A stretch of DNA of 64,000 nt, from the NCBI GenBank assembly GCA_965204215.1, contig CBDBDZ010000013.1:1165606-1229605 (forward strand), given 5' to 3'. Of the stretch, positions 25,932-48,163 are shown piece by piece (the first letter of the stretch is position 1; the number at the start of each line of letters is the position of its first letter). A program made the translations under genes and the position numbers. The notes below the pieces were generated by a model. It was not told where the DNA came from, searched no databases, and worked only from the letters and a program-made list of their open reading frames with translations. Origin of the DNA: Pseudomonadales bacterium. Lineage in GTDB: Bacteria; Pseudomonadota; Gammaproteobacteria; Pseudomonadales; GM7GCV1.

Positions 25932-25945
25932 GGTACTTTGACTAG

Positions 25946-27530: not shown

Positions 27531-27734
27531 CTAGGAATTGTCGATGAAGCGGGCGAAATTAACTGGCATAATTTTGAGCGAACTAGTGACTTTATACAGC
27601 GCGAGAAAGCCAAAGGCGTTGTTCCTGAATTTGAAGGATAAAAGCTTATTTGAAGCCTGAAAAAATCTGATATTTTGACGGCGAGCCTTTTTTCTATCAC
27701 TATAAACGCATGGAAATTATCAATGGAACTATTA

Positions 27735-31206: not shown

Positions 31207-34200
31207 TAATATGCAAAACTATTTGCTCTTGCTGTTTTGTCCATTGTGATTGACGGCGATTATAAGGGCGACGGCTTTGTTCCACTAATCCTTCCCAACC
31301 TAGCTGATTATAACGTGCGCTCCAGCGATAATAAGTGGCTCGTGACCAGCCTATTGACTTCAAACGAAGTGCTTCGCTACAACCTTCTTGTTTCAATTGG
31401 TCATAGAGTTCTAGTCTATGGATTCTGTCAATTGCTTCAGTTGGCGCTCTATCATTAATGCGCCAACTGCGATATGATTTGATTCGTAGGCTTAAGGTCT
31501 GCATGGGTAGTCTCTCTGTAAGTTAATTTAGTCAAATTACAAAGGCTACCCGACTTTAAACCAGCTTTCAAATGACCTATTAATTTGATGGAAAAGTCTT
31601 ACGACTTTACCACAAATTAACAGGTGAAAAATTTAAAAAATAAGTCTCATATCTATCTGAACCTATACATCAGAACCGATTTACCAATATCAATGTCGAG
31701 CAATTATCAGAATAAGATAAAAGGTATGCCCACGACAAATTAGTTGTAAAAGATAGATGCCTCTTTATTTTCCTATAATTTCAAACCCTGCCAATCTTAT
31801 TGGAACGCTCTCGCGGTTCTGGAATATTTGATAATTCGATTCCCTCTTTAATCCATAAAGACCACTGTCTCAAAGCTACACCATATCTAGCTTTAGATTT
31901 TATTTTCCAGTTAAGGTTATTTTCAAAAGATATCTTCTCAGCAATTCCTTTTGCATCTATATTTGGAAACTCTTTCATTAATTCAATACATCTCAGTACA
32001 GACATTTCAGTTTTCACAGCTTCCCAAATTGCTTCTTTTCTTCCTCCTGATTTTTTTATTACATCAAGATTTAAAGTAACTAAATTATTCTTATCGGTGA
32101 CTAAATCAAGCCTCTTTAAAACCGATAGTTCATTTCTTTTTATAGCGGTTTTCAGGCAACCTGAATCAGATATATCGTTAAATGCTTTTAAAGCCGCTGA
32201 AGGAGACACTAACGCTAAAAAAACTTTACTACGTTTATTTCCCCTTTTTATCAAATCTTTCCAATCTTTTATAGCTGATCCCGCATCTTGTACGATAAAA
32301 TCAGTACTAACTGGAGATAAAAACCCACTATAAATAAGGTAAATGGCTAACCTATTTGAATAAGTACTCCAAGTTTTTTCTTCATGTTTAGCTCTAGGCA
32401 CGCATTTTTTAAGAGTTTTTCGAATAATAGATTGGTTAATAATTTTACCAGAGTACTCTTGATAAAGAGCTGTTTTTAGGGAGTGTTTACCCATTTTTTC
32501 ACGAAGTGATTTCAAAATAGCTATTTCATCATTAACACCAAGCTTATCACTTATTTTAAAAGATTCTCCTTTTCGCTCAGCTAGACCAAGTATTACTAAA
32601 TCTGCACCTATATTTAAGACAGTTCTCTTTTTTAAGCCGACCAGCCTCCCAATATCAAAAGAACTTGTAAAATTATCCACTTTCAACATTATACAAATAC
32701 TTATAAGAGAAGATGCTTCGGTTTTTGGAATGTAGTTATATGGTACAGTTGGAATTTTTTTTGTAAGTAGATAGTCTCTGAATATGTCCCAATATACATT
32801 AAGACGATCACCGCTTTTTATAACTAAATGCTTCTGTATTAAATTATTCAAAGCTGTTATTCCTGATATTTCTATAATTTCACTCCAATCAGCTGGTGCT
32901 TTTTGAGCAATGAGCTTTAAACATGCTGATGACTGTTGGGATAAATCCTTTAAATCATCATAAAATAAACGCTCTACATCAATATTAATTAATACAGCAT
33001 CTGCTCCTTTCCCTTTGACCATTCCATCATACAAATTAATATATAACCTTTTTAACAACCATGGGAATCCCTGACTAACTTGGATTATTTGATGTTTAAT
33101 TTCTTGATCAACGTTCTGTCGAATTTCTTTCTCAAACTTAGTAATTGAATTCAATATTTCTCCTTTTTCAAAAACATCTAAAGGAAATTCTTTCCGATAG
33201 TCAGATAGTTCGTGCCATGCATAATAAGCTGGATGGTCATCCTGTGAAATATTATCTGTCTTCCATGCAAATCCTAGAACAATATTACTTTTAATGCTAG
33301 CCACATCAAGCATTAGGTTTTTAGCTGCATTAAATATTCCAAATAATTCAGGTTTGGCATAAATCTCTTCAAATTGGTCAAATATTAAACAAACAACTTG
33401 TTCCTTTCTCACTAAAGATTCTAAATATAACTGGACGCTATTTGAGCTTAATGGTGAATCTGGATTGGTTAGAAACAATTCATTTTTGTCTCCAAAATCG
33501 CATTTTTGGGCTTCTCTCAAAAATTGAATCAATGATGCCAATATATAAGTGGGTTCCCGAGCTCCTCTCATGTCAACAGCATAAACAAAATATTTTTTCC
33601 GATAAAATCTATTCTTAGACTTATCTCTCAGTTTTGCAATAAGGGAGCTTTTCCCTAAACCAGAATCACCTGTTATGGCAAATACTCTTGTCCCTAAATC
33701 TTCCTTAGCTGATTCTAAGAAATTTAGTATATCTTTTTGAGTTGTATCACGACCCACAAAATCTATAGGTCTTGCTGGGCGATAATCGTTCCATGAATCT
33801 GCCGTTTGCACTTCGGCAACAAAAGGTAATTTTTTTGGCAATACATTTTCAATTGTATTACCCATATTAACTTTGAGGTCATACTCAATTAATACCGTGT
33901 CTAACAAAGATAAGTTTTGAATATTAACTCTGCATTAAATATTCGAAATTATTAAGCTGCATATTTAATTTTCTGATGCTTGAAATAAGATTGAATTCTT
34001 TCGGGTTGCTGTTGTAGCAGATTCATATGCTTATCTAATTTTTTAGCAATATCCCCTTTCTTTCGAGTCGGTTTATCAGCACCCATTGAGCGCTTTAAAT
34101 CACAATTGAGATACTCATCGGGGTTAAGTTCAGGGGAATAGCTAGGCAGATAGAAGACCTCAATTTTTTCAGTATTACCTGCTAACCATTCTTGAACCAA

Positions 34201-34415
34201 TTTAGCATGATGTACGCGTAAGTTATCAACAATCAAAAAAACCTTTTTAGATGATTGCTTTATTAATTGTTTCAAAAATTTGATGAAGACCTGAGCCGTG
34301 AACTTATCGTCATAGACCATAAAATGAAGTTTTCCTTGATTAGTAATGGTTGACACCATGTTAACTCGTTCACGCTTAGCCTGAGATAATACTAAAACTG
34401 GTGTTTGCCCTTTAG

Positions 34416-35996
34416 CCCGCATATTTCATAAACCTACAAATAACTTCGAGTTTAAGGTGAAGTTGGATTATCCTGCTTTAATTTAGTTTAAGTTTGTTGA
34501 ATACGTAGCTTAATATGCTCTTTGCCCGAATTTCAGACATAACTCCCCCTTACCCCCATTGTTTGTTCTCGTGCCGGGGCAGCACTTTTTACAGTCCTAT
34601 CCAGGTTTAAGCCGGGCGACAACCAACTCGAAGATATCTTGATAAGGATATGCGCTGGGTAATAGTAAGCGTATACGCCTGGTATTGGATAAAATAACGG
34701 CAGCCACTTTGAGTAATTTAAGGCGTATGGTTCCTACTTGTAATTGGGCAAAAACAGTGCTTTTTAAGCAGTGATGACGTAGTCGCTCCATCAACACATA
34801 AGCCAGTGACGATAACAACAGTCGCCATTGATTAGGCCACCAGTGATGACAACTCGTTCGGTCAGCAAACATATCGAGTTGCTGTTCTTTAATATGGTTT
34901 TCCATTTCGCCACGAGCACAATAGAGATCCTCATAAATAGCTTGATGTTCGCCCGATAAATTCGTCACCACAAATCGCGGGTTCATGCCTTTTCCAGTAT
35001 GTTCAATTTTAGCGATGACACGGCGTTGACGCGACCATGATTGAGCTGCATACTGGATATGAGTAAACCAGCGCAAGGGGTTTCCAGATCGTTCATATTG
35101 TTCATTGACCGCATCAATCCAGGGTGACAGCATCTCTAGTATTCGGCTATTTTTTGCAATGCCCAGCACGTAACCAACATCATGACGCTCACACCAATTC
35201 ATCATTTGATGCCGACAAAACCCACTATCGCCACGTATAATGATTCTGACATTAGGCCACTGTTTACGCAACCGTTTTACCAACAAACTGAGAATCGCCC
35301 AACTGTGCTTCGCGCCATCGATATTACTGGGTCGAAGATAGCTGACCAACAGTTGTTCACCGCAGAATACATACAAGGGTAAAAAACAATAATGCCGATA
35401 ATAACCATTGTAAGAGCGACCTTCTTGCGTACCATGGACGCGATCATCAGTGGCATCGAAGTCGAGAATTAATTCCTCTGGGGCACTATCAAACGAATCA
35501 ATAAATAGGTTCAACAATACGTCATGAATGGCAATGTTTGATTGCGCAGTAAATGATTGTTCTAATCGACACAATGTCGACTGGCTTCCCAGTACTTGAT
35601 CAGCTTCCGTTGCCGTTTGTAATGCCTTATCGTGTCGCAAGGTCTCGTGATCGTTAAGGTCTTCGTAACCCATGCATAAGCTATACAAGCGTTGACGAAT
35701 CAAACTCTGCAGTGAATGTTTCACATAACTGCTGTGCCGGGTATCGGGAAATACCGATGCCACTTGCTTGCTTAGACATAAGTGTTTATCAAGCTCTCTG
35801 AGCAATAAAACACCAGCATCGCTGGTCATATCGCCACCACTAAATTGAGTTTCGATTTGACGGCGATTTAAAGGTGAAAAGTAAGTAGAAGTTGAGGTAC
35901 AATCTGTCATCGGTGCTTGGCTTATAATTTTGACTTAACACATTGAATTATAACGCATTAAACAAGCACCGTACTTTTTTTTATGAAATATGCGGG
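34416..35996 (-). mobile_element. IS1380-like element, copy B (intact)
   Basis: 1581 bp flanked by TTAG on both sides (34412-34415 and 35997-36000). The uninterrupted IS630 copy 2 carries a single TTAG at the homologous site (30583-30586), which shows a 4-bp target duplication. Confidence 0.9.
34597..35910 (-). CDS. IS1380-family-like DDE transposase
   Basis: 437 aa, identical to the product of 46665-47978. It has an N-terminal GGDMTSDAGVLLLRELD motif, GYEDLNDHETLRHD, and the C-terminal YCARGEMENHIKEQQ signature typical of IS1380/IS4-superfamily enzymes. Confidence 0.85.
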   Translation of the reverse strand: MTDCTSTSTYFSPLNRRQIETQFSGGDMTSDAGVLLLRELDKHLCLSKQVASVFPDTRHSSYVKHSLQSLIRQRLYSLCMGYEDLNDHETLRHDKALQTATEADQVLGSQSTLCRLEQSFTAQSNIAIHDVLLNLFIDSFDSAPEELILDFDATDDRVHGTQEGRSYNGYYRHYCFLPLYVFCGEQLLVSYLRPSNIDGAKHSWAILSLLVKRLRKQWPNVRIIIRGDSGFCRHQMMNWCERHDVGYVLGIAKNSRILEMLSPWIDAVNEQYERSGNPLRWFTHIQYAAQSWSRQRRVIAKIEHTGKGMNPRFVVTNLSGEHQAIYEDLYCARGEMENHIKEQQLDMFADRTSCHHWWPNQWRLLLSSLAYVLMERLRHHCLKSTVFAQLQVGTIRLKLLKVAAVILSNTRRIRLLLPSAYPYQDIFELVVARLKPG

Positions 35997-37414
35997 TTAG
36001 GAGCATAACCGCGAGGATAATGCTCTTGACTCGAAATACCTGTTTCATCACCCCAGTGAATTTCTGCATCTTCATCCTGGGCGCGTTGGTGAATTGCAGG
36101 ATAATCTTCATCAAGCCACTGTTGAACTTGAGCAGGTTGCTGTTCATAACTACGTTTGACTGGACGCTGGGGGGTAAAACCCCAACGATTAAGGTAAAGA
36201 CAGACAGTTCGATAGGCTAAATCAATTGAAAATTCATCATCAATCAATTGTTGAACTGCTTTGATTGACCACAGTGCAAAATCCAACTTTAACTGGTCTG
36301 GTGTCTTATCAATAATCAACTTCTGAATATGTTTTTCTTGCTCCGGTGTTAAGTCCCGTCCCACTCCCAATGGGCGTCCTCGTGGTTTTTCTTTGGTGAG
36401 CTTTTCGCCTGATGCTTTATATTCACGTAGCCATTCTGATACCGTGATATAGCGAAGACCAAGCTCTTCGGCTATGGCTTTTTTTGTACGGTCTCCCTTC
36501 TTGTAAAGGCGAAGACAAATTTTTTTCAATTCTAGTCGAGACTCGGGGCTAAGGGTTCTTAAATCTACTTGTTTCATGACTAGTATTATAACATAAAATT
36601 ATGATATATTCATGCAGGGTTAATAGTATCTTCATCTTGAATATGAGCACCACTTTCAGCTCTATATATTAAAACTCCATAAGGAGTACCTCCTTTTAAA
36701 GTGTATACACACCAATATAAACCATACTTGGATATTAATAATACCCAATCACCTAAAAGTTCCTGCTCTCCAACAAAGTTTTTAGCATCCCGAATAGGAG
36801 GTTCGATTATAATTGATGAATTGACTAGTGACTCAATAATAAAGTTGGGTGTATAAAAGCTAAGCCGAGATGATTTTTCTTTATCTTTAGACTTCCATTT
36901 TTCAACAAACCCTTTCGCATCCTTAGTCAAATCTGACGTTGATATAAGCCACCCTTCTGAATATCCCTCACTCTCTACTATACCCCATAATTTATATAAA
37001 ATAGATGCAGATATTGGTTCTTTTTGAGCTTTACATTCTACGAGAATTTCTTTTCCATTGATCTTATGTTTGCATAATAAATCTAATTCGGCACTTATAG
37101 TGCGTATATTTTTAATGACATCATAGTTTTGGGTCACAAGTAGTTTTTTTGCTAATTCTTCCAAAAGGTCACCTTTATCTTTGCTACTATCGCTTCTTTT
37201 ACAAGCAACTTCTATTGTTATATTTGTCATGTTTCAACCTTCTATATATTTAACAGTGATTATAGAATAACATTGAAAAATTTTTTTCAATTGACATCCA
37301 CATATCAAGGCTATAAAAACACGAAAACTACGCAAGATAGAAAAGTGTTGGTAGCCGAAAAAAATAATTTTTTACTCTTGGCTACTGTCCTAAACATCAG
37401 TACTGTAACTATCC

Positions 37415-37924
37415 ATGTTATTGGATATAGTAGAATCAAATAGTCAGAACCGTTTTGCCAATATCGACACCAAGCAATTGTCAGAGCAAGAAGAAGTTTC
37501 CGCAGTCAATTTAGCTACCCAAATACTAGAAAGCTGTATTGAGACTAAAGAGCAGTTACAAGGCTCACAAGATGTCAAAAAATACCTGAGGTTAAAAATG
37601 GATGGTTATAAGCGAGAAGTTTTCTCGGTGTTATTTTTGGATAATCATCATCGAATTATCAGCTATGAAGAAATGTTTCTAGGCACGATTAATGCCTGCC
37701 ATGTTTACTGTCGAGAAATTGTCAAAAGGGCTTTAGATTTCAACTCAAGCGCAGTGATACTCGCACATAATCACCCGTCGGGACTCACCGAACCCAGTCA
37801 AGCCGATATTCACATCACCAAAACCATCAAAGATATTCTAAATGTCATTGATGTAAGAGTAGTCGACCATTTAATCGTCGGGGAGATGGGCGTGGTTTCG
37901 ATGACAGAGATGGGTTTGGTGTGA
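37415..37924 (+). CDS. radC: RadC-like JAB/MPN-domain protein
   Basis: 169 aa with the JAMM-type motif AHNHPSGLTEPSQADIHIT. It is the short form common on mobile elements. Confidence 0.85.
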   Translation: MLLDIVESNSQNRFANIDTKQLSEQEEVSAVNLATQILESCIETKEQLQGSQDVKKYLRLKMDGYKREVFSVLFLDNHHRIISYEEMFLGTINACHVYCREIVKRALDFNSSAVILAHNHPSGLTEPSQADIHITKTIKDILNVIDVRVVDHLIVGEMGVVSMTEMGLV

Positions 37925-38072
37925 ACTTTAAAATTTTCTGAAAAAATAACTATTGCTTTACTCGGGAGCCGTTTCTAAACTGGCTGGCGGTTGGTCTCAG
38001 TCTATTTCATAACCCTATCTAAAAATAGACAAACCAACCCGTCCCGCTTTTCGTTATTATGGTGGCAAATGG

Positions 38073-38825
38073 ATGCTCGCCCCATGGATTATTGAACAAA
38101 TTGAAAAAATACCGCATAAAGTCTATGTTGAGCCTTTTGGTGGTGCCGCGAGTGTTTTGATTCGTAAAAAGCCCAGCGACATTGAAATCTACAACGACCT
38201 CAATGACGAACTGGTCAATTTTTTCAAAATTATCCGTAACCCGTACACCGCTGAACGGCTTATCAATATGCTGGAAAATACGCCGTACTCTCGGGTAGAG
38301 TTTAATACTTCCTATTTGCCCAGTAGCTTTAATCTTGAACGCGCTCGGCGATTAGCGGTTCGGGCTTTGATGGGTTTTGGGGCGACAGGGGCTAGTCGAT
38401 TAGCCAAAACTGGTTTTCGTTACCAAATATCAGGTGACCGCAGTGCCACACGTGACTGGATGACTTATCCCGAATCTCTCAGAAAAATATCCAAACGATT
38501 GAGGTCAGTGGTCATGGAAAATATCGATGCCTTGAAGCTGATTGAACGTTTTGACTCAGAGCGTACCCTCCACTATGTCGACCCGCCGTATATTTGGAAC
38601 ACTCGAAGTAAGAACGCTAAATACCAAGGCTACAAATACGAAATGAGCTATGAGGCCCATATCGAATTACTGCAACGATTAAAAAATTTGAAAGGTTCAG
38701 TACTGCTCAGTGCCTACGAACACCCGCTTTATGACCAACATTTGAAAGGTTGGAAAAAAATCACCAAACCCAGCTTTGCACTTAATGCCGCTCCAAGAAA
38801 AGAAGTATTGTGGATTAAATCATAA
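38073..38825 (+). CDS. DNA N6-adenine methyltransferase (D12 class, Dam-like); start problematic
   Basis: Catalytic DPPY motif (HYVDPPYIW). The conserved N-terminal AdoMet motif (FRYYGGKW) lies upstream of the first ATG, at 38049-38072 in frame. No ATG, GTG or TTG occurs between it and the in-frame stop at 38010. Confidence 0.7.
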   Translation: MLAPWIIEQIEKIPHKVYVEPFGGAASVLIRKKPSDIEIYNDLNDELVNFFKIIRNPYTAERLINMLENTPYSRVEFNTSYLPSSFNLERARRLAVRALMGFGATGASRLAKTGFRYQISGDRSATRDWMTYPESLRKISKRLRSVVMENIDALKLIERFDSERTLHYVDPPYIWNTRSKNAKYQGYKYEMSYEAHIELLQRLKNLKGSVLLSAYEHPLYDQHLKGWKKITKPSFALNAAPRKEVLWIKS

Positions 38826-38913: not shown

Positions 38914-39633
38914 ATGGATAAAGATGGGCTTTCATTTTATATCCTAGTAGGACTTATTATAGCTAGCTGTTTTGCTTTAGGTTATCAAGAACTACTTCCC
39001 AACGATCCAGACGAGCGACTTATTTACGAGTTTTTCTTTTGGGTGTTGGCAGTTATTGCTGCAATAGCTTATCTTGTTCCAGGTTTTTTGATTGAAGGTG
39101 TTGAGATACTGATAGACGCCGCGAAACACTGGGGACACTCATCAAGAATCACTGAATCAAAAGAGTATCAAATATTAAATGAAACTAATGTAGCTTGTGA
39201 CATTGAGAGCTTTAGTGAATTCATTCACAAAATGGCAGCATATTCGGATATTAAATTTTCATTATTTGCCAAAGCAAAAATCCAACAGGTTTATTTTAAA
39301 CTTCAGCAACTGGAAAATTTGGTACCTGAAGTTGTTCAAAGTTTAAAAGCGGCAGAAACAGGGAAATTTGGTGATGCCGCTCAACAAATAGAAGATTTAA
39401 CTTTCACCCTCAAAAATTACCATTCATCAATAGAAGCACTGACAGTCAAGGCAAGCAGCCAGGTAAAATACTGTCGTTATGATTCAGGTGATAAAGCTTA
39501 TGCCTTTTATAATAATGATCTTCGCCAACAAACCCAACAAAAACTTATTGAAAAACTAACCATGCACAAAAATGAAATCATTCCTGACCTCGGACATCGA
39601 TTACTGCCATTGAAACGTTATCGGATAAAATAG
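38914..39633 (+). CDS. Hypothetical membrane protein (2 TM helices plus helical cytoplasmic domain)
   Basis: 239-aa ORF with TM segments FYILVGLIIASCFALGY and FFFWVLAVIAAIAYLVPGFLI. No recognisable family. Confidence 0.5.
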   Translation: MDKDGLSFYILVGLIIASCFALGYQELLPNDPDERLIYEFFFWVLAVIAAIAYLVPGFLIEGVEILIDAAKHWGHSSRITESKEYQILNETNVACDIESFSEFIHKMAAYSDIKFSLFAKAKIQQVYFKLQQLENLVPEVVQSLKAAETGKFGDAAQQIEDLTFTLKNYHSSIEALTVKASSQVKYCRYDSGDKAYAFYNNDLRQQTQQKLIEKLTMHKNEIIPDLGHRLLPLKRYRIK

Positions 39634-39668
39634 AGTCACAAGATCAAGTCAATAATCGTTTTGATAAA

Positions 39669-40019
39669 TTGCAACTTACTAATAAAAAACAAATTAATGA
39701 AGCACTAGCAAAATTTAATAAAATATCAGGTTTAGGTCTTAAGCAGCTTGCTAAGCTAGATGAGAAGTTTGAACTAATCATGGTAATGAAAGATTTGGTT
39801 TATGAACGTGCCGAAACGCAAGAATCACATAATAAGCAGTACAAACAGTTTATTGATGATACCGTCTCTGATTTGAAAAAAGATATGACCACTCTACATG
39901 AATACTTTGGTACATTGAAAACACAGAATGAAGCTCTGATGGCAGCCAATTCAGGCGATGAGCAAGGAGCTTCTATGCAACAAATGATGCTATTACTCAA
40001 AGAGTTGAAAGATGCCTGA
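39669..40019 (+). CDS. Hypothetical coiled-coil protein
   Basis: 116-aa ORF with a TTG start, so the start is uncertain. The sequence is helical and heptad-rich. Its stop overlaps the next ORF's ATG by 8 nt. Confidence 0.45.
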   Translation: MQLTNKKQINEALAKFNKISGLGLKQLAKLDEKFELIMVMKDLVYERAETQESHNKQYKQFIDDTVSDLKKDMTTLHEYFGTLKTQNEALMAANSGDEQGASMQQMMLLLKELKDA

Positions 40020-40527
40020 TTCGTTAGAAGAAAAAAAAGAACTGCTACGATTGAAAGAAGACATGAATCGCGCTCGCCTAGAAATGTCGAGCGGGTTAGC
40101 GGTAGAGCGTCAAAAATCTCGTGAACTCAGTCACCAACAGCGACAGGAACTGGCTCTACAGGGGAACCTTGAAGCCGTTAAGCTTAATCATGAACTCGAC
40201 CCCGTTATCCGTGACCGTGATTTTGCTGACCTTGTGCGGGAAGAAAATGTTCGAGTTCAATCCCTAGGGGCTGAATTATCACTACGCTGGCAATACGATA
40301 AAGCTCAAAAGAATTTAGAGCAAAAGCAAACGATGGAGCAGATGCAGGCTGAGTTAATGCGAATGACGCTGGAATCCAAGCTGGAACAGAAAAAGATGGA
40401 AAAAGAAGAAGCCCTTGAAGAAAAGCTACTGACGTTTAAAGCAGAACTGGCTCAAGAGTTTGGGCAATTATCGGAAGAACAGATAAATAAGGCAGTTGAG
40501 AAGTTAGTGAAGCAGGGGAAGGTTTGA
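40012..40527 (+). CDS. Hypothetical coiled-coil protein (Glu/Lys/Gln-rich)
   Basis: 171-aa ORF. Its TGA overlaps the TTG start of the methyltransferase by 4 nt. Confidence 0.5.
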   Translation: MPDSLEEKKELLRLKEDMNRARLEMSSGLAVERQKSRELSHQQRQELALQGNLEAVKLNHELDPVIRDRDFADLVREENVRVQSLGAELSLRWQYDKAQKNLEQKQTMEQMQAELMRMTLESKLEQKKMEKEEALEEKLLTFKAELAQEFGQLSEEQINKAVEKLVKQGKV

Positions 40528-41774
40528 ACTTTCTTGATTTGTTCGCAGGTGCTGGAGGACTATCAGAAGGCTTTATTCGAGCAGGGTTCAATCCTATTGC
40601 CCATGTTGAATCTGATATTGCAGCTTGCTTTACTCTCAAAACCCGTGAAACCTATCATTGGTTAGTATCCCAACAAGAAGAACAACACTATATTGATTAT
40701 TTATATGGAAAAATAAATCGCTCGGATTTATACAATTTTTTACCCAAAAATCATGTAGGAACTGTTATAAACACAGAAATAGGTCAGAACCAACTCGGAA
40801 ATATATTTGATAAAATTGATTCTATATTAAACGGTAAAAAAATAGACTTAATCATTGGAGGACCTCCATGCCAAGCATATTCTGTAGTTGGAAGATCACG
40901 AGATGAAAACCGTATGAAAGGTGATTCTCGAAACTTTCTATATATTTACTATGCCCAATTTTTAAAGCAATATAAGCCCAAATTCTTTGTATTTGAAAAT
41001 GTTAAAGGATTGTTGTCCGCTAAAAACACACAGAATATAAGCTATTTTGATGAAATGCGTACACTTTTTAAAGAGTGTGGTTATGAAACTGAATTCATGA
41101 CTCTTTCAGCTGAAGAATATGGAGTCCCTCAAAAGCGAAAAAGAGTAATTTTAGTAGGTAGAAGGGGTAAGAAAAAAAATTTCTATCCGGAACCCATCAA
41201 GCTATCCCCTCAAGCTTTAGTTGAAGAAATTTTTTCTGATTTACCGTCAATAAAAGCTGGAGAAGGGAGTGTTACACCATGCAAAGCTAAGTTTTATGAT
41301 AGAACTTGGTTATACGAATCAGGAATAAAAAATGACGTCTATCCAATTACTTGGCATCAATCACGTCCTAATAAGAAACAGGATTTGGAAATATATAAAA
41401 TTGCTGTTAAGTTATGGAATAAGAATAAATATAGGCTCAATTATAATAATCTCCCCAACAGATTAAAAACTCATCAACAAAGAACTTCTTTTTTAGATAG
41501 ATTTAAAGTCGTCGCATCAAATAACCATTATGCACATACTGTAGTTGCTCATATATCAAAAGATGGACATTATTATATTCATCCTGATATAAAGCAAAAT
41601 CGTTCATTAACGCCGAGAGAAGCAGCTAGATTACAAACTTTTCCTGATAGTTATTTTTTTGAAAGTATTACTGGAAAACCTGCTAGAACTCCTGCTTTTC
41701 GCCAAATAGGTAATGCAGTACCTGTTCTTCTTGCACAAAAAATAGCTGAAAAACTTATAGAGAACTGGTCATGA
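40524..41774 (+). CDS. DNA (cytosine-5)-methyltransferase
   Basis: All canonical C5-MTase motifs are present: I (LDLFAGAGGLSEGF), IV (GGPPCQAYS), VI (ENVKGL), IX (RSLTPREAARLQTFPD) and X (QIGNAVPV). Confidence 0.95.
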   Translation: MNFLDLFAGAGGLSEGFIRAGFNPIAHVESDIAACFTLKTRETYHWLVSQQEEQHYIDYLYGKINRSDLYNFLPKNHVGTVINTEIGQNQLGNIFDKIDSILNGKKIDLIIGGPPCQAYSVVGRSRDENRMKGDSRNFLYIYYAQFLKQYKPKFFVFENVKGLLSAKNTQNISYFDEMRTLFKECGYETEFMTLSAEEYGVPQKRKRVILVGRRGKKKNFYPEPIKLSPQALVEEIFSDLPSIKAGEGSVTPCKAKFYDRTWLYESGIKNDVYPITWHQSRPNKKQDLEIYKIAVKLWNKNKYRLNYNNLPNRLKTHQQRTSFLDRFKVVASNNHYAHTVVAHISKDGHYYIHPDIKQNRSLTPREAARLQTFPDSYFFESITGKPARTPAFRQIGNAVPVLLAQKIAEKLIENWS

Positions 41775-43936
41775 CTAAAAATAATGATACTTTTAAAATC
41801 AGACCTGCTGGTCGTCACATATTAACCATTGGCAGGGATTTAATTCAAGATGTCCATTCGGCTATTATTGAACTAGTCAAAAATGCTTATGATGCTGATG
41901 CAACTAGGGTCAATATTTCACTTTCGCCAAACCCTAACGAAAAAGGATATGTAATTACTATTTCTGATAATGGGCATGGAATGAGCAGAAATGTAGTAAT
42001 CAATAAATGGATGGTTCCATCTACTGACGACAAACTCAAGAGAAAGGAAAGCCCAAATGGACGAATTATGCAAGGCCGTAAGGGCATTGGACGCTACGCA
42101 GCATCCATTTTAGGAAATGACTTGTTACTAGAGACAGTAACTCCCAGTGGAGAAAAAACAAGTCTTTACATTGAATGGGATAGTTTCTCAGAGGCTGAAT
42201 TCCTTGATAATGTTGAAATATTAATTGAGTCATCTAAATCCGTGGATAAATGTGGCACGGCGCTAACAATTAATAGTGATGATTCAAGTGGGTCTGAATT
42301 TAATGAAAAAACCTTTAAAAAACTTACCGAAGAACTACAAAAACTAATCCCTCCTTTTGAAGAAATTTCTAATGAAAAATTTGAAATCAGGATTGAAATT
42401 CAAGGCTTTGGAGAGGAAACAGATAGAAATGAAATTGTTCAATCTTTTCCAATTTTCAAGCTATTTGATTATAAAATTGTAGGATCTGTAACTAATGATG
42501 GAACAGGCATACTTAAATACTCACAACAGAACGCCAAAAACTCAGTCACTGAAGAAATAGAAATTAAGGTCGCAGAAAGGACTAACTGTGGTAACTTATA
42601 TTTCGATATTCGTGTATACGATAGAGAACCTGAAGCAATCGGCGCACTTGTTGGTAGAGGTTTGAAAGATCAATTTTCAAAGCAATACGTTGGCAAGCAA
42701 GAAGCAAAAAACATTTTAGACCTACATAATGGTATTGGAGTATATAGAAATGGCTTTAGAATAAGACCACTTGGTGATTCTGACTATGATTGGTTGAAGT
42801 TAAATAAACGAAGAGTTGATAACCCGTCTATGCGTATTGGTACTAATCAGGTAATCGGCTATGTCCTTATTGAAAGAGAAGAAAGTTCACATTTAATTGA
42901 AAAAAGTGCTAGAGATGGTCTAATCAATAATTCAGCTTTTAAAATGCTTGTAGGAGCTACAAATAAAGTTATTGGAGAGCTTGAGGCAAGACGATTTAAT
43001 TACAGGTCTAAAGCAGGGTTAAGTCGAAAAACTTTAGAAGTCGAGAAAGATATAGAGAGATTATTTTCATTTGATGAATTAAAATCAGGTATTAGAAAAT
43101 CTCTGTCTAATTCTGGTATTGAAACAAAGGCAATTCAAGAAGTATTGTCGTTAATCAATCAAAGTGAAAAACAAAAAAGCGAAGCTGTAACTAATATTCG
43201 AAAGACAGTCGCTTTCTATCAAGGTCAGGCTACTCTCGGTAAAATTATGAGCATAGTATTACATGAAGGAAGACAACCCCTTAGCTATTTTAGAACACAA
43301 ACAAGAAGTTTTAATGATTGGCTTGATAAGTATAATGAGAGTGGAGACATATCAATTTTGATTAAACTAAAGGAAAAAACTAGAGGCTTGAGTGAAAATG
43401 CAATAATTTTTTCAAAACTATTTTCTCGTTTAGACCCTCTAGCAGTTGGGAAAAGGTCCCCCCAAAAATTATTAAATATTTACTCTTCACTCAAAAAAAT
43501 TGCATCAATTTTTGAAAGCAAATTAAGTGAATCAAATATCGAGCTAATTATACAAGGGGATAAAAACATTTCTGATAACTTCTGGGAACAGGATTTGTAT
43601 TCAATTTTTACGAATCTAATCGATAATAGTATCTATTGGATTTGCGAAAAGCGGTGTTCTGTCAGAAAGATAGAAATTATTATTAAACCTCAGGCTAAAC
43701 AAACCTTCTTTATAGATTATCAGGATAGCGGTCCTGGAATTGAAGCAAGTTTGATTGAAAGTCAGGTTATCTTTGAACCACATTTTTCTACTAAACCAAA
43801 TGGTATGGGGTTAGGTCTAGCTATCGCTGGTGAATCAGCCATTAGAAATGGATACGAATTAGCGGCATTAGAATCAGATTTTGGAGCATATTTTCGAATA
43901 CAACAACAAGAGGTATTCACTGATGAGTATTTGTAA
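41771..43936 (+). CDS. Dual-GHKL protein: N-terminal MORC/MutL-like ATPase (HATPase_c_3-type) fused to a histidine-kinase core (DHp plus CA)
   Basis: The N-terminal region has IELVKNAYDADATRV, ISDNGHGMS and GRKGIGRYAASILG. The C-terminal region has an H-box (IVLHEGRQPLSYF), an N-box (IFTNLIDNSIYW), G1 (QDSGPGI) and G2 (PNGMGLGLAIA). The ATG overlaps the dcm stop (ATGA). Confidence 0.8.
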   Translation: MTKNNDTFKIRPAGRHILTIGRDLIQDVHSAIIELVKNAYDADATRVNISLSPNPNEKGYVITISDNGHGMSRNVVINKWMVPSTDDKLKRKESPNGRIMQGRKGIGRYAASILGNDLLLETVTPSGEKTSLYIEWDSFSEAEFLDNVEILIESSKSVDKCGTALTINSDDSSGSEFNEKTFKKLTEELQKLIPPFEEISNEKFEIRIEIQGFGEETDRNEIVQSFPIFKLFDYKIVGSVTNDGTGILKYSQQNAKNSVTEEIEIKVAERTNCGNLYFDIRVYDREPEAIGALVGRGLKDQFSKQYVGKQEAKNILDLHNGIGVYRNGFRIRPLGDSDYDWLKLNKRRVDNPSMRIGTNQVIGYVLIEREESSHLIEKSARDGLINNSAFKMLVGATNKVIGELEARRFNYRSKAGLSRKTLEVEKDIERLFSFDELKSGIRKSLSNSGIETKAIQEVLSLINQSEKQKSEAVTNIRKTVAFYQGQATLGKIMSIVLHEGRQPLSYFRTQTRSFNDWLDKYNESGDISILIKLKEKTRGLSENAIIFSKLFSRLDPLAVGKRSPQKLLNIYSSLKKIASIFESKLSESNIELIIQGDKNISDNFWEQDLYSIFTNLIDNSIYWICEKRCSVRKIEIIIKPQAKQTFFIDYQDSGPGIEASLIESQVIFEPHFSTKPNGMGLGLAIAGESAIRNGYELAALESDFGAYFRIQQQEVFTDEYL

Positions 43937-44927
43937 AATTATTGTTATTGAAGATGTGCAGAGTCAACTTGATCTATTCTACAGTACCATTTCTGACTTG
44001 AAGGAATTGGACTCAATAGAAATAGAACTTGAATCAGCACGAAACGTAGCAGAAGCGTTCAAAAAAATTGATGGTACTTTCGACGGAGCAATAATTGATA
44101 TGAAATTAGAAAAAGAAGAGCAAGGTGGATTAACAATAATCCAAGAAATAAAAAATAGATTTTATAGACTACCAGTAATTATTCACACAGCGACTCCAGA
44201 TTCTGTTGAAATCAGAGGTTCTGTCATTAATGTTTGTAAACGAAGTGAAATCGATATCAAAGATTTAATCTTAGAGTTATATTATTTATACAAGACAGGG
44301 ATAACTCAAATAATGGGTGGAAGGGGTCAAATTAATCGTGCCTTATCAGAAGTTTTTCAGAATAACATATTGCCTAGAAGAAGTTCTTGGGTTAACTATG
44401 CAAAAAATAATCAAAATACTGAAAAAGCTCTACTTCGCTACACTCTCAATCACTTACTACATAATCTTGATGACAAAAATGAAACATTCTTTCACGATGA
44501 AGTATATCTTTTGAGCGAAGAACTTCATACTGGAAGTATAGTAAGAAGAAAAGATATTAATACCTTGTTTGTCATATTAACCCCATCGTGTGACATGATT
44601 AAAAATCAAGATGGCATTAGAAGAACTGACACAATACTTTTAGCTGAAATTGAACCTTTTGCTTTCAATGAAAACGACAGCAGGGATGAAAAAAATAGAA
44701 AGGAGTCTAAAAGGAAAAACCAAACAAATTACTGTCACTGGCTTCCTCCTAAAGAAGGTTTACTTGATAGTGGGCTTATTAACTTTAGGAAGTTATATCA
44801 CCATGATTCTGATAGTTTTGAAAATAATTTTGTGTCAAAAAATTTACAGATATCTCAACCTTTTGTTAAGGATGTAATCTCTAGATTTTCATCATATTAT
44901 GCTAGGCAAGGACAACCCCAGTTATAA
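43923..44927 (+). CDS. Receiver (REC) domain protein with uncharacterised ~200-aa C-terminal domain
   Basis: The start was set to the ATG at 43923 (MSICKIIVIEDV), which overlaps the kinase gene by 14 nt. REC residues are present: ED in IVIEDV, the phospho-acceptor D in GAIIDMKL and T in VIIHTAT. No HTH or any known output domain is recognisable after about residue 125. Confidence 0.75.
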   Translation: MSICKIIVIEDVQSQLDLFYSTISDLKELDSIEIELESARNVAEAFKKIDGTFDGAIIDMKLEKEEQGGLTIIQEIKNRFYRLPVIIHTATPDSVEIRGSVINVCKRSEIDIKDLILELYYLYKTGITQIMGGRGQINRALSEVFQNNILPRRSSWVNYAKNNQNTEKALLRYTLNHLLHNLDDKNETFFHDEVYLLSEELHTGSIVRRKDINTLFVILTPSCDMIKNQDGIRRTDTILLAEIEPFAFNENDSRDEKNRKESKRKNQTNYCHWLPPKEGLLDSGLINFRKLYHHDSDSFENNFVSKNLQISQPFVKDVISRFSSYYARQGQPQL

Positions 44928-44968: not shown

Positions 44969-46069
44969 GTGCCCTACCAAGTCATTAAAACCATAAAAGG
45001 TCGCTCTTATTTGTATGAGCAGGAGACTTTTCGCGAGGGACAAAAGGTCAAAACGGTTAGTCGTTATATTGGTGCTTGCGACGGTGCTGGTAAAGCAACA
45101 TCCAAGGCAGTTCAACTAGCTATCACTGTACCACCTGAAGTCAAAGAAAACGATTCCCAAGCAAAATATGTTAGCGAAGAAAAGCCTCAGCCACCAAAGT
45201 TAACACTACAAATTACTACTGATTTGAAAGGCAATCATATCAGCCAGCCAGCGTTGGAACGTAACTACGATGATATTACTCATCAGATGCAGAGACAAGA
45301 GATTAAAGCCGAACATATCAAGCCTTTGGTTTTGGTAAAAGGCTTTAGTTTCAAGTACAAAAGCCTTAGGAAGCAGAACAAAATCAGTATTCCCAAAGCT
45401 AATGTCCGCGGTACTCGTGCTAAGGTCTGGCGCAGTTTTCACCTTGCCAACGCACACTCGTATCTCGATGGGTTACAGAAAAGTGATCCACAACGCTTTA
45501 CGGGTCTTCAGCAACATTTAGAGACATCCTACCGAAAGCAGAATAAAGCCATTGCCGCCCACATTATGAACAGCAACCGCAAGGACGTCTATAATATAGG
45601 GTTAACACTACATTTTATGTATTCTAAAATGGTGAGTGCTTGGACGCAGAGAAAGTTTCAAGCGGAAAACTTTGGACTGTCGAATTACGAAGACCGTTCC
45701 AGTTGGCGCGATGATGCAGCGTTGCTGATGGCAGAGATTCAAGCTGATGGCTGGCATCACTGTTACGACAAGTATCAACAAGAATTACTGCGTACTGAGC
45801 GTGCTTTGTTTCGGCAAATAACGAACTATCGCAAAGCTACTTTTCTCGACCGACTTAGTGGCAAGCGTGCCAAGCTGAAAAGAGCTTGTCTGCGAGCTAA
45901 TGCACGTCGTCGTGCGTTGTTTGAAACCTGTAATAAAATTTCGGTACTTTCATCGTTATACCACGGTTATAAGAATCAGTATCTGAATGGCAATGAACCT
46001 TTCACTCATGAACAAAACTGGCAAATAGCTCGTCAACGATACCGAAAAAAGAATAAATCAAAGCGATAG
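44969..46069 (+). CDS. Hypothetical basic protein
   Basis: 366-aa ORF with a GTG start, 41 nt after the REC gene. The N-terminus is YQVIKTIKGRSYLYEQETFREGQKVKTVSRYIG. The remainder is helical and Arg/Lys-rich, with the tail RQRYRKKNKSKR. No family recognised. Confidence 0.5.
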   Translation: MPYQVIKTIKGRSYLYEQETFREGQKVKTVSRYIGACDGAGKATSKAVQLAITVPPEVKENDSQAKYVSEEKPQPPKLTLQITTDLKGNHISQPALERNYDDITHQMQRQEIKAEHIKPLVLVKGFSFKYKSLRKQNKISIPKANVRGTRAKVWRSFHLANAHSYLDGLQKSDPQRFTGLQQHLETSYRKQNKAIAAHIMNSNRKDVYNIGLTLHFMYSKMVSAWTQRKFQAENFGLSNYEDRSSWRDDAALLMAEIQADGWHHCYDKYQQELLRTERALFRQITNYRKATFLDRLSGKRAKLKRACLRANARRRALFETCNKISVLSSLYHGYKNQYLNGNEPFTHEQNWQIARQRYRKKNKSKR

Positions 46070-46579: not shown

Positions 46580-48159
46580 CCCGCATATTTCATAAAAAAA
46601 GTACGGTGCTTGTTTAATGCGTTATAATTCAATGTGTTAAGTCAAAATTATAAGCCAAGCACCGATGACAGATTGTACCTCAACTTCTACTTACTTTTCA
46701 CCTTTAAATCGCCGTCAAATCGAAACTCAATTTAGTGGTGGCGATATGACCAGCGATGCTGGTGTTTTATTGCTCAGAGAGCTTGATAAACACTTATGTC
46801 TAAGCAAGCAAGTGGCATCGGTATTTCCCGATACCCGGCACAGCAGTTATGTGAAACATTCACTGCAGAGTTTGATTCGTCAACGCTTGTATAGCTTATG
46901 CATGGGTTACGAAGACCTTAACGATCACGAGACCTTGCGACACGATAAGGCATTACAAACGGCAACGGAAGCTGATCAAGTACTGGGAAGCCAGTCGACA
47001 TTGTGTCGATTAGAACAATCATTTACTGCGCAATCAAACATTGCCATTCATGACGTATTGTTGAACCTATTTATTGATTCGTTTGATAGTGCCCCAGAGG
47101 AATTAATTCTCGACTTCGATGCCACTGATGATCGCGTCCATGGTACGCAAGAAGGTCGCTCTTACAATGGTTATTATCGGCATTATTGTTTTTTACCCTT
47201 GTATGTATTCTGCGGTGAACAACTGTTGGTCAGCTATCTTCGACCCAGTAATATCGATGGCGCGAAGCACAGTTGGGCGATTCTCAGTTTGTTGGTAAAA
47301 CGGTTGCGTAAACAGTGGCCTAATGTCAGAATCATTATACGTGGCGATAGTGGGTTTTGTCGGCATCAAATGATGAATTGGTGTGAGCGTCATGATGTTG
47401 GTTACGTGCTGGGCATTGCAAAAAATAGCCGAATACTAGAGATGCTGTCACCCTGGATTGATGCGGTCAATGAACAATATGAACGATCTGGAAACCCCTT
47501 GCGCTGGTTTACTCATATCCAGTATGCAGCTCAATCATGGTCGCGTCAACGCCGTGTCATCGCTAAAATTGAACATACTGGAAAAGGCATGAACCCGCGA
47601 TTTGTGGTGACGAATTTATCGGGCGAACATCAAGCTATTTATGAGGATCTCTATTGTGCCCGTGGCGAAATGGAAAACCATATTAAAGAACAGCAACTCG
47701 ATATGTTTGCTGACCGAACGAGTTGTCATCACTGGTGGCCTAATCAATGGCGACTGTTGTTATCGTCACTGGCTTATGTGTTGATGGAGCGACTACGTCA
47801 TCACTGCTTAAAAAGCACTGTTTTTGCCCAATTACAAGTAGGAACCATACGCCTTAAATTACTCAAAGTGGCTGCCGTTATTTTATCCAATACCAGGCGT
47901 ATACGCTTACTATTACCCAGCGCATATCCTTATCAAGATATCTTCGAGTTGGTCGTCGCCCGGCTTAAACCTGGATAAGACTGTAAAAAGTGCTGCCCCG
48001 GCACGAGAACAAACAATGGGGGTAAGGGGGAGTTATGTCTGAAATTCGGGCAAAGAGCATATTAAGCTACGTATTCAACAAACTTAAACTAAATTAAAGC
48101 AGGATAATCCAACTTCACCTTAAACTCGAAGTTATTTGTAGGTTTATGAAATATGCGGG
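46580..48159 (+). mobile_element. IS1380-like element, copy C (intact)
   Basis: 1580 bp with the same ends as copies A and B. The flanking tetranucleotides differ: TTAG at 46576-46579 versus CTAG at 48160-48163. Confidence 0.9.
46665..47978 (+). CDS. IS1380-family-like DDE transposase
   Basis: 437-aa ORF identical in sequence to the product of 34597-35910. Confidence 0.85.
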   Translation: MTDCTSTSTYFSPLNRRQIETQFSGGDMTSDAGVLLLRELDKHLCLSKQVASVFPDTRHSSYVKHSLQSLIRQRLYSLCMGYEDLNDHETLRHDKALQTATEADQVLGSQSTLCRLEQSFTAQSNIAIHDVLLNLFIDSFDSAPEELILDFDATDDRVHGTQEGRSYNGYYRHYCFLPLYVFCGEQLLVSYLRPSNIDGAKHSWAILSLLVKRLRKQWPNVRIIIRGDSGFCRHQMMNWCERHDVGYVLGIAKNSRILEMLSPWIDAVNEQYERSGNPLRWFTHIQYAAQSWSRQRRVIAKIEHTGKGMNPRFVVTNLSGEHQAIYEDLYCARGEMENHIKEQQLDMFADRTSCHHWWPNQWRLLLSSLAYVLMERLRHHCLKSTVFAQLQVGTIRLKLLKVAAVILSNTRRIRLLLPSAYPYQDIFELVVARLKPG

Positions 48160-48163
48160 CTAG

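Follow-up and report, generated by a model that had tools for sequence, protein, structure and literature searches.

A soluble GHKL-ATPase/histidine-kinase fusion in a mobile methylase-kinase-regulator cassette that may serve in defence

This report concerns three overlapping genes in a 64,000-nucleotide (nt) stretch of DNA from a Pseudomonadales bacterium (GenBank assembly GCA_965204215.1, contig CBDBDZ010000013.1, positions 1,165,606 to 1,229,605 of the forward strand), which we call the window and whose own numbering is used throughout. The first gene (40524..41774, +; TTG start) encodes a C5 cytosine DNA methyltransferase of 416 amino acids (aa), the second (41771..43936, +; ATG start) a soluble 721-aa protein in which a GHKL ATPase is fused to a histidine kinase, and the third (43923..44927, +; ATG at 43923) the cognate response regulator of 334 aa, recognised by sequence and present as the same 334-aa protein in public data (P0121). 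The methylase stop overlaps the kinase start as ATGA, and between the kinase stop and the regulator start the overlap is 14 nt. The original prediction dealt with the kinase open reading frame (ORF) alone, and thereby overlooked that the functional unit is the methylase-kinase-regulator cassette. The kinase architecture has itself been in the literature since 2021 and the window kinase is a further example of it.

The kinase ORF is not a chance reading frame, because more than 3800 homologues were found in a search of 5.8 billion clustered proteins, and the best 120 are all of ~720 aa, 53-57% identical to it, with both of its Pfam domains in each. Their hosts are Enterobacterales, Pasteurellaceae, Comamonas, Aeromonas, spirochaetes, Kiritimatiellae and Desulfobacula. 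The original prediction described a single soluble polypeptide with two Bergerat-fold ATPase modules, one MORC/MutL-like at the N-terminus and one in a C-terminal histidine-kinase core, the first filling the position usually held by the sensor input of a histidine kinase. The ORF list, Pfam, the alignment, the AlphaFold2 (AF2) model and Foldseek confirm this architecture. The motifs ELVKNAYDADA, DNGHGM and GRKGIGRYA stand at aa 34, 66 and 102, the Pfam matches are to HATPase_c_3 (aa 28-153) and HATPase_c (aa 607-698), and the domain order is that given by Pfam, PDB profiles and Foldseek. The highest Kyte-Doolittle mean over 19 residues is 0.98, so that there is no transmembrane segment. The AF2 model has a mean predicted local distance difference test score (pLDDT) of 66, with both ATPase domains at ~80.

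The N-terminal module (aa 28-190; 41852..42340, +) is of the HATPase_c_3, MORC/MutL/paraMORC type on the evidence of Pfam, motifs, NCBIfam, PDB profiles and the AF2 model. Profile support for a GHKL fold here was a check set beforehand, and it was found: Pfam HATPase_c_3 (PF13589) matches aa 28-153 with an E value of 2.5e-22 and 79.8 bits (cutoff 25), and it matches 40 of 40 kinase homologues. Motif I is E34/N38/D41, motif II D66-x-G68-x-G70, motif III G102-x-K104-G105-x-G107 and motif IV G162-T163, and every one of these residues is invariant in an alignment of the 40 homologues. With all four GHKL motifs invariant, the N-terminal ATPase should be catalytically competent. In NCBIfam the N-terminus matches the BbrUII/HgiDII restriction enzymes (9.6e-17) and MutL (4e-7), and PDB profile matches of the module include HtpG (1e-5) and MORC3 (7e-3). 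The MORC-specific S5 motif GhXhhpXXRhl of Iyer et al 2008 was not found in the kinase; the nearest sequence is G321-I-G-V-Y-R-N-G-F-R-I, in which the Arg is shifted by one, and the kinase is therefore at most paraMORC-like and not a MORC proper.

At the other end of the protein the predicted DHp/CA core is borne out by a PDB profile alignment of aa 491-710 to the DHp and CA domains of ZraS and by Foldseek with the AF2 model, which aligned ~240-255 columns to the DHp and CA domains of HK853, CpxA and LOV-HK chimeras. The DHp-like hairpin (aa 484-554; 43220..43432, +), placed by alignment, PDB profile, AF2 and Foldseek, carries a HisKA-type H-box, YQGQATLGKI..L-H498-E-G-R-Q-P-L, in which H498 (codon 43262-43264), E499 and G500 are invariant in the 40 homologues, and in the ZraS alignment H498 falls on the phospho-histidine of AHEIRNPL. 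The helical hairpin that was looked for in the AF2 model is present at aa 488-554, as helices 488-524 and 527-554, with pLDDT just 42-82 in the region. The Pfam check proposed with the original prediction held in part, in that HATPase_c_3 and HATPase_c were matched while HisKA (PF00512) was not, not even when aa 468-600 were searched alone at E<=10; Pfam HEF_HK did not match the window kinase either. The CA (HATPase_c) domain (aa 566-712; 43466..43906, +) is defined by Pfam, residue invariance and PDB matches, among them ThkA, PhoQ and CckA. Pfam HATPase_c (PF02518) covers aa 607-698 with E 1.4e-17 and 64.6 bits against a cutoff of 26.4, and pLDDT is ~82. The boxes are N (N615/D618/N619), G1 (D652-x-G654-P-G656), F (I667-F668-E-P) and G2 (G678-x-G680-x-G682), with N615/N619, D652/G654/G656, F668 and G678/G680/G682 invariant in the 40 homologues. 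Bifunctional HisKA kinases have N or T at the H+4 position of the H-box. The window kinase has Q and most homologues R at H+4, and because neither is N or T the phosphatase activity may be absent.

Between the two ATPase modules is a family-specific middle domain (aa 195-385; 42353..42925, +), delimited by conservation, which is a possible transducer. Its signatures are RVYDRE (281-286), GVYRNGFRIRPLGD..DWL (323-342), NQVIGY (359-364) and EKSARDGL (377-384); together with the ATP motifs and the H-box these are the most conserved stretches of the kinase, and the domain has many invariant D, E, R and K residues. The signature motifs are kept in relatives of only 25-37% identity (Campylobacter, Bacillus plasmids). 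Pfam and a PDB sequence search gave no match for the middle domain, a PDB profile search with aa 195-415 gave no MORC, MutL, GyrB or Hsp90 chain, and Foldseek with the whole kinase model returned DHp and CA kinases only, leaving the middle domain without a fold match. The original prediction had called aa ~323-345 an S5-like transducer. The string it quoted, GVYRNGFRIRPLGDSDYDWLKLN, is at aa 323, but the S5 label is unconfirmed, there being no PDB profile match and pLDDT being <50 over aa 284-360. The predicted strand-strand-helix-strand-helix order of aa 322-414, with K378 and R381 invariant, is compatible with S5 and is no test of the fold. The middle domain is joined to the DHp by a helical linker (aa 388-483; 42932..43219, +) seen in the AF2 secondary structure as helices at 388-414, 420-447, 452-463 and 466-483. 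Apart from the S5 label, the interpretation made in the original prediction is supported by these data, and a cytoplasmic, DNA-related signal is plausible because the kinase gene is welded to a gene for a C5 DNA methylase.

The regulator begins with a receiver domain (aa 1-120; 43923..44282, +), identified by a Pfam Response_reg match of 1e-5, which is under the cutoff, and by PDB profile and Foldseek matches, all of which are to receivers, with a template modelling score of ~0.7-0.8 to the target. It has the acidic pair E10-D11, the phospho-acceptor D59 (codon 44097-44099), T89 and a basic residue at 107; D59 is kept in 120/120 representatives and position 107 is K or R in the same 120/120.

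The remainder of the regulator is an uncharacterised output domain of ~210 aa (aa 122-334; 44286..44924, +), outlined by the AF2 model and conservation, helical over 127-183 and then alpha/beta over 190-334 in a model of good confidence (pLDDT 84 overall). A profile of this domain found 1121 cluster representatives at E<=1e-3 among 1.84 billion searched. Nearly all of the best 150 of these 1121 have an N-terminal extension of ~120 aa, the length of a receiver, although Pfam confirmed a receiver in just one representative. Other architectures are almost absent among the representatives searched, and the sole exception checked is P0288 (571 aa), in which the first half of a C5 methylase (Pfam aa 105-244) is followed by the output domain (343-567), with neither kinase nor receiver, and which is probably a deletion chimera of the cassette. 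The output domain is better conserved than the receiver, with median identities of 38% and 29% respectively. Near-invariant polar residues are R172, E193, C223-D224 (PxCD), H272 (HWLP), N287 (N/D), K316-D317, R321 and R328, of which C223 and R328 are at 100% in 119 diverse representatives with 28-42% identity to the window regulator, and the C-terminus, ARQGQP, is also near-invariant, as RQGQP across representatives.

Pfam, PHROGs, NCBIfam, PADLOC and a PDB sequence search gave no match for the output domain. The pattern of its conserved residues looks enzymatic. Cys223 stands at the N-terminus of a helix, a strand 49 residues on carries His272, and the strand after it, a further 15 residues on, carries Asn/Asp287; from this spacing we infer a resemblance to the triad of papain-like/NlpC-P60 hydrolases and not to any known restriction nuclease. 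A PD-(D/E)xK reading (E193 ... P-x-C-D224 ... E242-x-E244) was set aside, E242 being kept in only 61/120 representatives. One member of the domain family matched YaeQ with E 0.09, which is too weak to serve as evidence, and comparison with the HNH protein AbrD of the Ambrosia system, discussed below, gave no likeness. Pfam, PADLOC, NCBIfam and PHROGs found no recognisable restriction nuclease domain anywhere in the three-gene cassette, which leaves the output domain as no more than a candidate for that part.

The methylase is well supported by Pfam (DNA_methylase, 2.1e-61), TIGR00675 dcm (1.7e-51), an end-to-end match to the PADLOC profile for the DrmMII-type methyltransferase of DISARM (2.2e-167) and by the presence of both the GGPPCQ and FENV motifs. 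Over 57 orthologues it is the most conserved gene of the cassette, with identities of 58-71%, where the kinase has 50-55% and the regulator 33-43%. The putative target recognition domain (TRD) is not hypervariable among orthologues in related loci, which is unusual for methylases of restriction-modification (R-M) systems, and because of this the cassette methylases probably share one fixed specificity. Two related metagenome loci, L059 (3436-4650) and L075 (8270-9469, minus strand), have a kinase-regulator pair that lacks its own methylase and is beside an EcoRII-like enzyme, Vsr and Dcm. The EcoRII-like label is our presumption from an N-terminal 'LSANDTGA..HQ.G.Y.P' motif. These neighbours hint at a CCWGG-type methylation context.

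Linkage was studied in 84 loci, 80 from metagenomes and 4 from IMG/VR, with denominators being the loci having enough sequence for the point at issue. The association of kinase and regulator is strict, as a regulator homologue is directly downstream of the kinase on the same strand in 70/70 loci, and an orthologous methylase (58-71% identity) is directly upstream in 53/67. The loci without it have a convergent downstream methylase, a different dcm and vsr pair, the EcoRII-like/Vsr/Dcm set or an adjoining type I system, and in most of these exceptions another dcm/vsr or EcoRII-like set is close by. The triad with overlapping ends was found in Yersinia, Marispirochaeta, Comamonas, Bibersteinia and Pectobacterium, with a methylase of 420 aa, a kinase of ~720 aa and a regulator of 363-365 aa. 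Its neighbours in these genomes are usually type I R-M, GmrSD, Mrr, Vsr and integrase genes, and in Bibersteinia the triad is alone amid housekeeping genes. The cassette is also present on conjugative plasmids and IMG/VR contigs. Campylobacter conjugative plasmids have the kinase, the regulator and a convergent dcm. On a Bacillus plasmid a homologous kinase of full length (hhalign E 4e-41) is accompanied by a regulator of 215 aa, an N6 methylase and an HNH nuclease that is a protein of its own. A promoter and terminator scan did no better than shuffled sequence.

With regard to earlier work, Bellieny-Rabelo, Pretorius & Moleleki 2021 (PMC8011034; GBE 13:evab024) described proteins with HATPase_c_3, HEF_HK and HATPase_c domains, their 'group 1', with 174 of 222 sequences. 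They reported an adjacent 'Response_reg_2' regulator with 91.6% linkage, an upstream C5 methylase and frequent Vsr, often downstream, proposed descent from paraMORCs and noted HATPase_c_3 at the classical sensor position (PMC8011034). The Pectobacterium genes had come to notice by up-regulation in planta and sensing of nucleoside triphosphates (NTP) was speculated upon; the work was computational only and the C-terminal domain of the regulator was not analysed (PMC8011034). The window system resembles group 1 in its three-part kinase with no transmembrane segment, its adjacent regulator and its upstream C5 methylase. The kinase P0083 (719 aa) of Pectobacterium brasiliense, the species of the founder locus, is 55% identical to the window kinase over 98% of the query, and its locus has the order methylase-kinase-regulator (365 aa), with ~41% identity between the two regulators. 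On this level of identity (~55%) the window kinase is an orthologue of the 'HK-like group 1' proteins. It differs in the H-box, which is HEG and not HEF, and HEF_HK (PF19191) matched 0/40 close kinase homologues at E<=10, Pectobacterium, Yersinia and Serratia members included, while it did match a Paraburkholderia relative weakly. Response_reg_2 (PF19192) did not match the window regulator. Models PF19191 and PF19192 thus appear to be narrower than the family in PMC8011034, and as they miss this subfamily its public annotation is just 'sensor histidine kinase' or 'ATP-binding protein'.

The only experimental evidence on the family is that for Ambrosia, a phage defence system of P. aeruginosa comprising the XRE protein AbrR, the N6-adenine methylase AbrA, the HATPase AbrB, the receiver protein AbrC and the HNH protein AbrD (bioRxiv 10.1101/2025.09.30.679545). 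Defence was lost in the mutants AbrB N40A and AbrC D60A (10.1101/2025.09.30.679545), so that the N-terminal ATPase and the phospho-acceptor Asp matter there, and these residues correspond to N38 and D59 of the window proteins. AbrB, taken from Table S1 of that work, is 30% identical to the window kinase over aa 14-384 (BLASTP E 4e-36), with ELVKNAYDADA identical, and also carries the signature motifs of the middle domain; the AbrC receiver is homologous to the window receiver (hhalign E 9.5e-5). The systems are alike in that AbrB has HATPase_c_3 and HATPase_c and in the combination of a DNA methylase with a kinase-regulator pair. However Ambrosia has five genes and AbrC has 209 aa, a receiver and a short helical tail, whereas there are three genes in the window cassette, its methylase is of the C5 type, and its regulator bears a distinct 210-aa domain that shows no relation to AbrD. 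Pfam, PADLOC and NCBIfam scans found no XRE or HNH gene among the flanking ORFs of the window, and as AbrA, AbrD and AbrR are not in the cluster we treat the window cassette as a sister system and not as a member. The output domain is missing exactly where a separate HNH nuclease occurs, on the Bacillus plasmid and in Ambrosia, which is our main reason for proposing it as the effector.

A further arrangement was seen on a Paraburkholderia plasmid (L014, 3322-8954), with an XRE-HTH gene, an Eco57I-type methylase, a kinase with HATPase_c_3, HEF_HK (weak) and HATPase_c, and then two proteins (355 and 225 aa) that lack annotation. The gene order is that of the first three Ambrosia genes and the downstream partners differ. 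Of these two partners, the larger shows no relation to the window regulator (hhalign probability 0.2%), and the 225-aa protein had no match in Pfam, the sole library scanned for it.

MORC and paraMORC proteins, the GHKL and S5 ATPases found in R-M operons, include GHKL-nuclease fusions such as paraMORC3 (Iyer, Abhiman & Aravind 2008), and in VcSduA (paraMORC3/Shedu) the catalytic Glu of the GHKL domain is required for defence. The window kinase shares with them the four ATP motifs, the association with cytosine methylases, Vsr and nucleases and the sporadic, laterally mobile distribution. It differs in having a kinase core and a receiver partner, neither DHp and CA core nor receiver partner being reported for any MORC or paraMORC by Iyer et al. 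2008, and in that S5 and the basic finger are unconfirmed in it. With HisKA kinases (ZraS, HK853, CpxA, PhoR, AtoS) it has in common H-E-x-R-x-P-L, the DHp hairpin, the N, G1, F and G2 boxes and a receiver gene directly downstream, but its input is a 480-aa ATPase-containing module with no transmembrane segment, PAS, HAMP or GAF domain, and the window regulator lacks a DNA-binding output of a known type. The BbrUII/HgiDII enzymes (NCBIfam NF050001) and PADLOC REase_II are alike over ~190 N-terminal GHKL residues and in being paired with a C5 methylase, but the likeness stops at the ATPase domain, beyond which the window protein has a kinase core and not a nuclease. In Detocs, the phage defence system associated with Rousset et al. 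2023, a cytoplasmic kinase-like sensor reportedly phosphorylates a receiver-enzyme effector. The sensor there is said to be of TPR type, with an extra buffer receiver, a nucleoside phosphorylase effector and no methylase; the analogy with the window cassette is a functional one only, and PADLOC gave no Detocs-related match in the cassette.

We suggest that this mobile three-gene cassette is a phosphorelay-gated, methylation-linked defence system, and put the probability of this at a little over one half (about 0.55). The signal, the mechanics of dimer and clamp, the direction of regulation, the output activity and defence by the three-gene variant are all matters that we infer. The kinase would be a soluble dimer in which the GHKL module and the Arg-rich middle domain form an ATP-driven sensor or clamp for a cytoplasmic cue, the likeliest being DNA without the 5-methylcytosine (m5C) mark of the cassette methylase, or some other infection-associated state of DNA. 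ATP-dependent closure of the N-terminal module would reach the DHp by way of the helical linker of ~100 residues, H498 would be phosphorylated by the CA domain, and the phosphoryl group would then pass to D59 of the regulator. Phosphorylation of D59 would release or activate the C-terminal enzymatic domain (C223-D224, H272, N287, E193, R328) for restriction or abortive infection, and the methylase would spare the host genome from triggering or attack. We count in favour of the proposal the domain calls and motifs, the overlapping genes (ATGA; 14 nt), which indicate translational coupling, the recurrence of the triad and the close linkage of its genes in other loci, the carriage on conjugative plasmids and IMG/VR contigs, the enzyme-like invariant residues of the output domain, the defence-type context in the window, the low G+C content of the cassette, the modular swaps and the homology to Ambrosia.

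Several observations weigh on the other side. The experiments on the family are on the Ambrosia homologue and not on the three-gene variant with a C5 methylase, and the authors of that study favour transcriptional control by the regulator (10.1101/2025.09.30.679545). In addition AbrA methylation gave phage no protection (10.1101/2025.09.30.679545), so that a plain model in which unmethylated DNA is read as non-self may not be right for the family. A DNA-binding or transducer fold for the middle domain is not supported by PDB profiles and the model there is of low confidence. The output domain has no sequence match to any nuclease or known family, fold searches with the regulator (PDB, BFVD) gave receivers only, the output domain not having been isolated in them, and neither the kinase nor the regulator is covered by a model in PADLOC 2.0. 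The pairs beside a complete EcoRII-like/Vsr/Dcm set fit a regulatory add-on equally well. The strongest form of the proposal, in which the immunity is self-contained and phosphorelay-gated, a MORC-like clamp reads m5C and the 210-aa domain is a new effector enzyme switched by Asp phosphorylation, is doubtful as a whole. If true, it would be the first two-component system shown to have DNA modification state as its direct input.

The main rival is a purely regulatory two-component system, in which an infection, NTP or DNA cue would lead the regulator to bind DNA and induce the methylase, unlinked restriction genes or both, its C-terminal domain being a DNA-binding or RNA polymerase-contacting module and not an enzyme. 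This view was put forward in PMC8011034 and is also the Ambrosia model, in which reporter fusions were induced upon infection and AbrC is said to have a wHTH (winged helix-turn-helix) (10.1101/2025.09.30.679545). Some pairs adjoin EcoRII-like/Vsr/Dcm or type I systems that would be open to such regulation, and the first part of the output domain (aa 127-183) is helical. However neither the family searches nor the fold search with the regulator, which gave receivers only, revealed an HTH or wHTH in the 210-aa domain, and its best-conserved residues, C223 (100%), D224, H272, N287, E193 and R328, resemble those of a catalytic or metal site and not a DNA-reading helix. Nor is there a nuclease to be controlled where the Bibersteinia triad is alone, and the absence of the long C-terminal domain from HNH-containing variants is as expected if it substitutes for a nuclease. 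We think regulation as the whole function unlikely, while taking it as the alternative to be reckoned with.

The kinase could on the other hand be itself an ATP-dependent endonuclease like BbrUII/HgiDII, with the nuclease in the middle domain and the DHp, CA and regulator serving to tune it. The match of the N-terminal 190 residues to BbrUII/HgiDII (9.6e-17) and PADLOC 'REase_II', the conservation of the middle domain, which is like that of catalytic motifs and rich in invariant D, E, R and K, and the GHKL-nuclease fusions in Iyer et al. 2008 would all fit. But the likeness is to the GHKL domain only (aa 20-209 against 13-199 of a 659-position model; 60.7 bits against a cutoff of 550), aa 195-415 have no recognised nuclease family or motif, and the 70/70 link to a regulator with an enzymatic-looking domain is left unexplained, making this improbable. 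We give equally little credence to a non-defensive role in epigenetic or physiological signalling, with the GHKL module sensing NTP or stress and the pathway adjusting m5C or host expression. The up-regulation of the Pectobacterium genes in planta and the NTP-sensing speculation (PMC8011034) point that way, as does the fact that no restriction enzyme was identified in the cassette. Against this are the patchy horizontal spread across phyla at ~55% identity, the occurrence in defence islands, beside integrases and on conjugative plasmids and viral contigs, and the homology to phage-blocking Ambrosia, while the intact catalytic residues of the N-terminal module argue against a passive nucleotide sensor.

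The usual inputs of bacterial signalling kinases are small molecules or events at the membrane. The mechanism proposed for the defence reading, if true, would be a case of a two-component phosphorelay recruited to innate immunity in which the sensor is an ATPase that handles DNA. Eukaryotic MORC-type ATPases act on methylated chromatin, and the same mechanism would tie MORC-type ATPases to methylation-coupled signalling in bacteria. The cassette is compact (4.4 kb) and extremely widespread, its homologues numbering thousands and occurring across phyla as well as on plasmids and prophage-like contigs, and the conserved output domain of the regulator makes it tractable for experiment.

The region of the window that carries the cassette is riddled with insertion sequences (IS) and has a flavour of defence. 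Two inverted IS copies of 1569 nt flank a 10.6-kb segment that includes the cassette: the left (34413..35981, -), with a DDE_Tnp_1_4 transposase, is the inverted twin of the right (46594..48162, +; 437-aa transposase), which was identified by Pfam and comparison of the arms, and the two are 100% complementary. Between the copies are an Mrr-like fragment, RadC and a Dam-like methylase, followed by three coiled-coil ORFs, the cassette itself and a basic ORF of 366 aa. The pair looks like a composite transposon, a reading weakened because the left copy is inside another IS, and independent insertions or substrates for inversion are equally likely. A third 1569-nt copy, frameshifted, is at ~25942-27535. 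The G+C content of the cassette is 0.34-0.36, against ~0.39 for the surroundings.

A 206-aa ORF at 36610-37230 (-) matches Mrr_cat / 'NACHT-associated inactive REase 1', and at 31781-33907 (-) there is a 708-aa STAND NTPase (nSTAND1/NACHT) with a G+C content of 0.32, the second-lowest in the window. The two are on the same strand with ~2.7 kb of nested IS between them, an IS630-like element interrupted by the 1569-nt IS, and look like one Avs/NACHT-type defence gene split by transposition. Immediately upstream of the cassette, at 38914-40527 (+), are three ORFs (239, 116 and 171 aa) that are rich in Glu, Lys and Gln and apparently coiled-coil, with no family match in Pfam, PADLOC or NCBIfam. 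There is an overlap between the 116- and 171-aa ORFs and another, TTGA, between the 171-aa ORF and the methylase start, so that in the window they appear to be co-transcribed with the cassette. They were rejected as parts of the system, not being conserved upstream in other genomes; a 104-aa ORF upstream of the Yersinia cassette is unrelated to them. Right after the regulator, at 44969-46069 (+; GTG start), is a very basic 366-aa ORF with no match in Pfam, NCBIfam or PADLOC and no homologue in the 84 related loci, which is probably unrelated cargo. Just upstream of the coiled-coil ORFs, at 37415-38825 (+), a RadC-like JAB gene adjoins a D12-class N6-adenine (Dam-like) methylase, a pairing characteristic of mobile elements, in their anti-restriction or leading regions.

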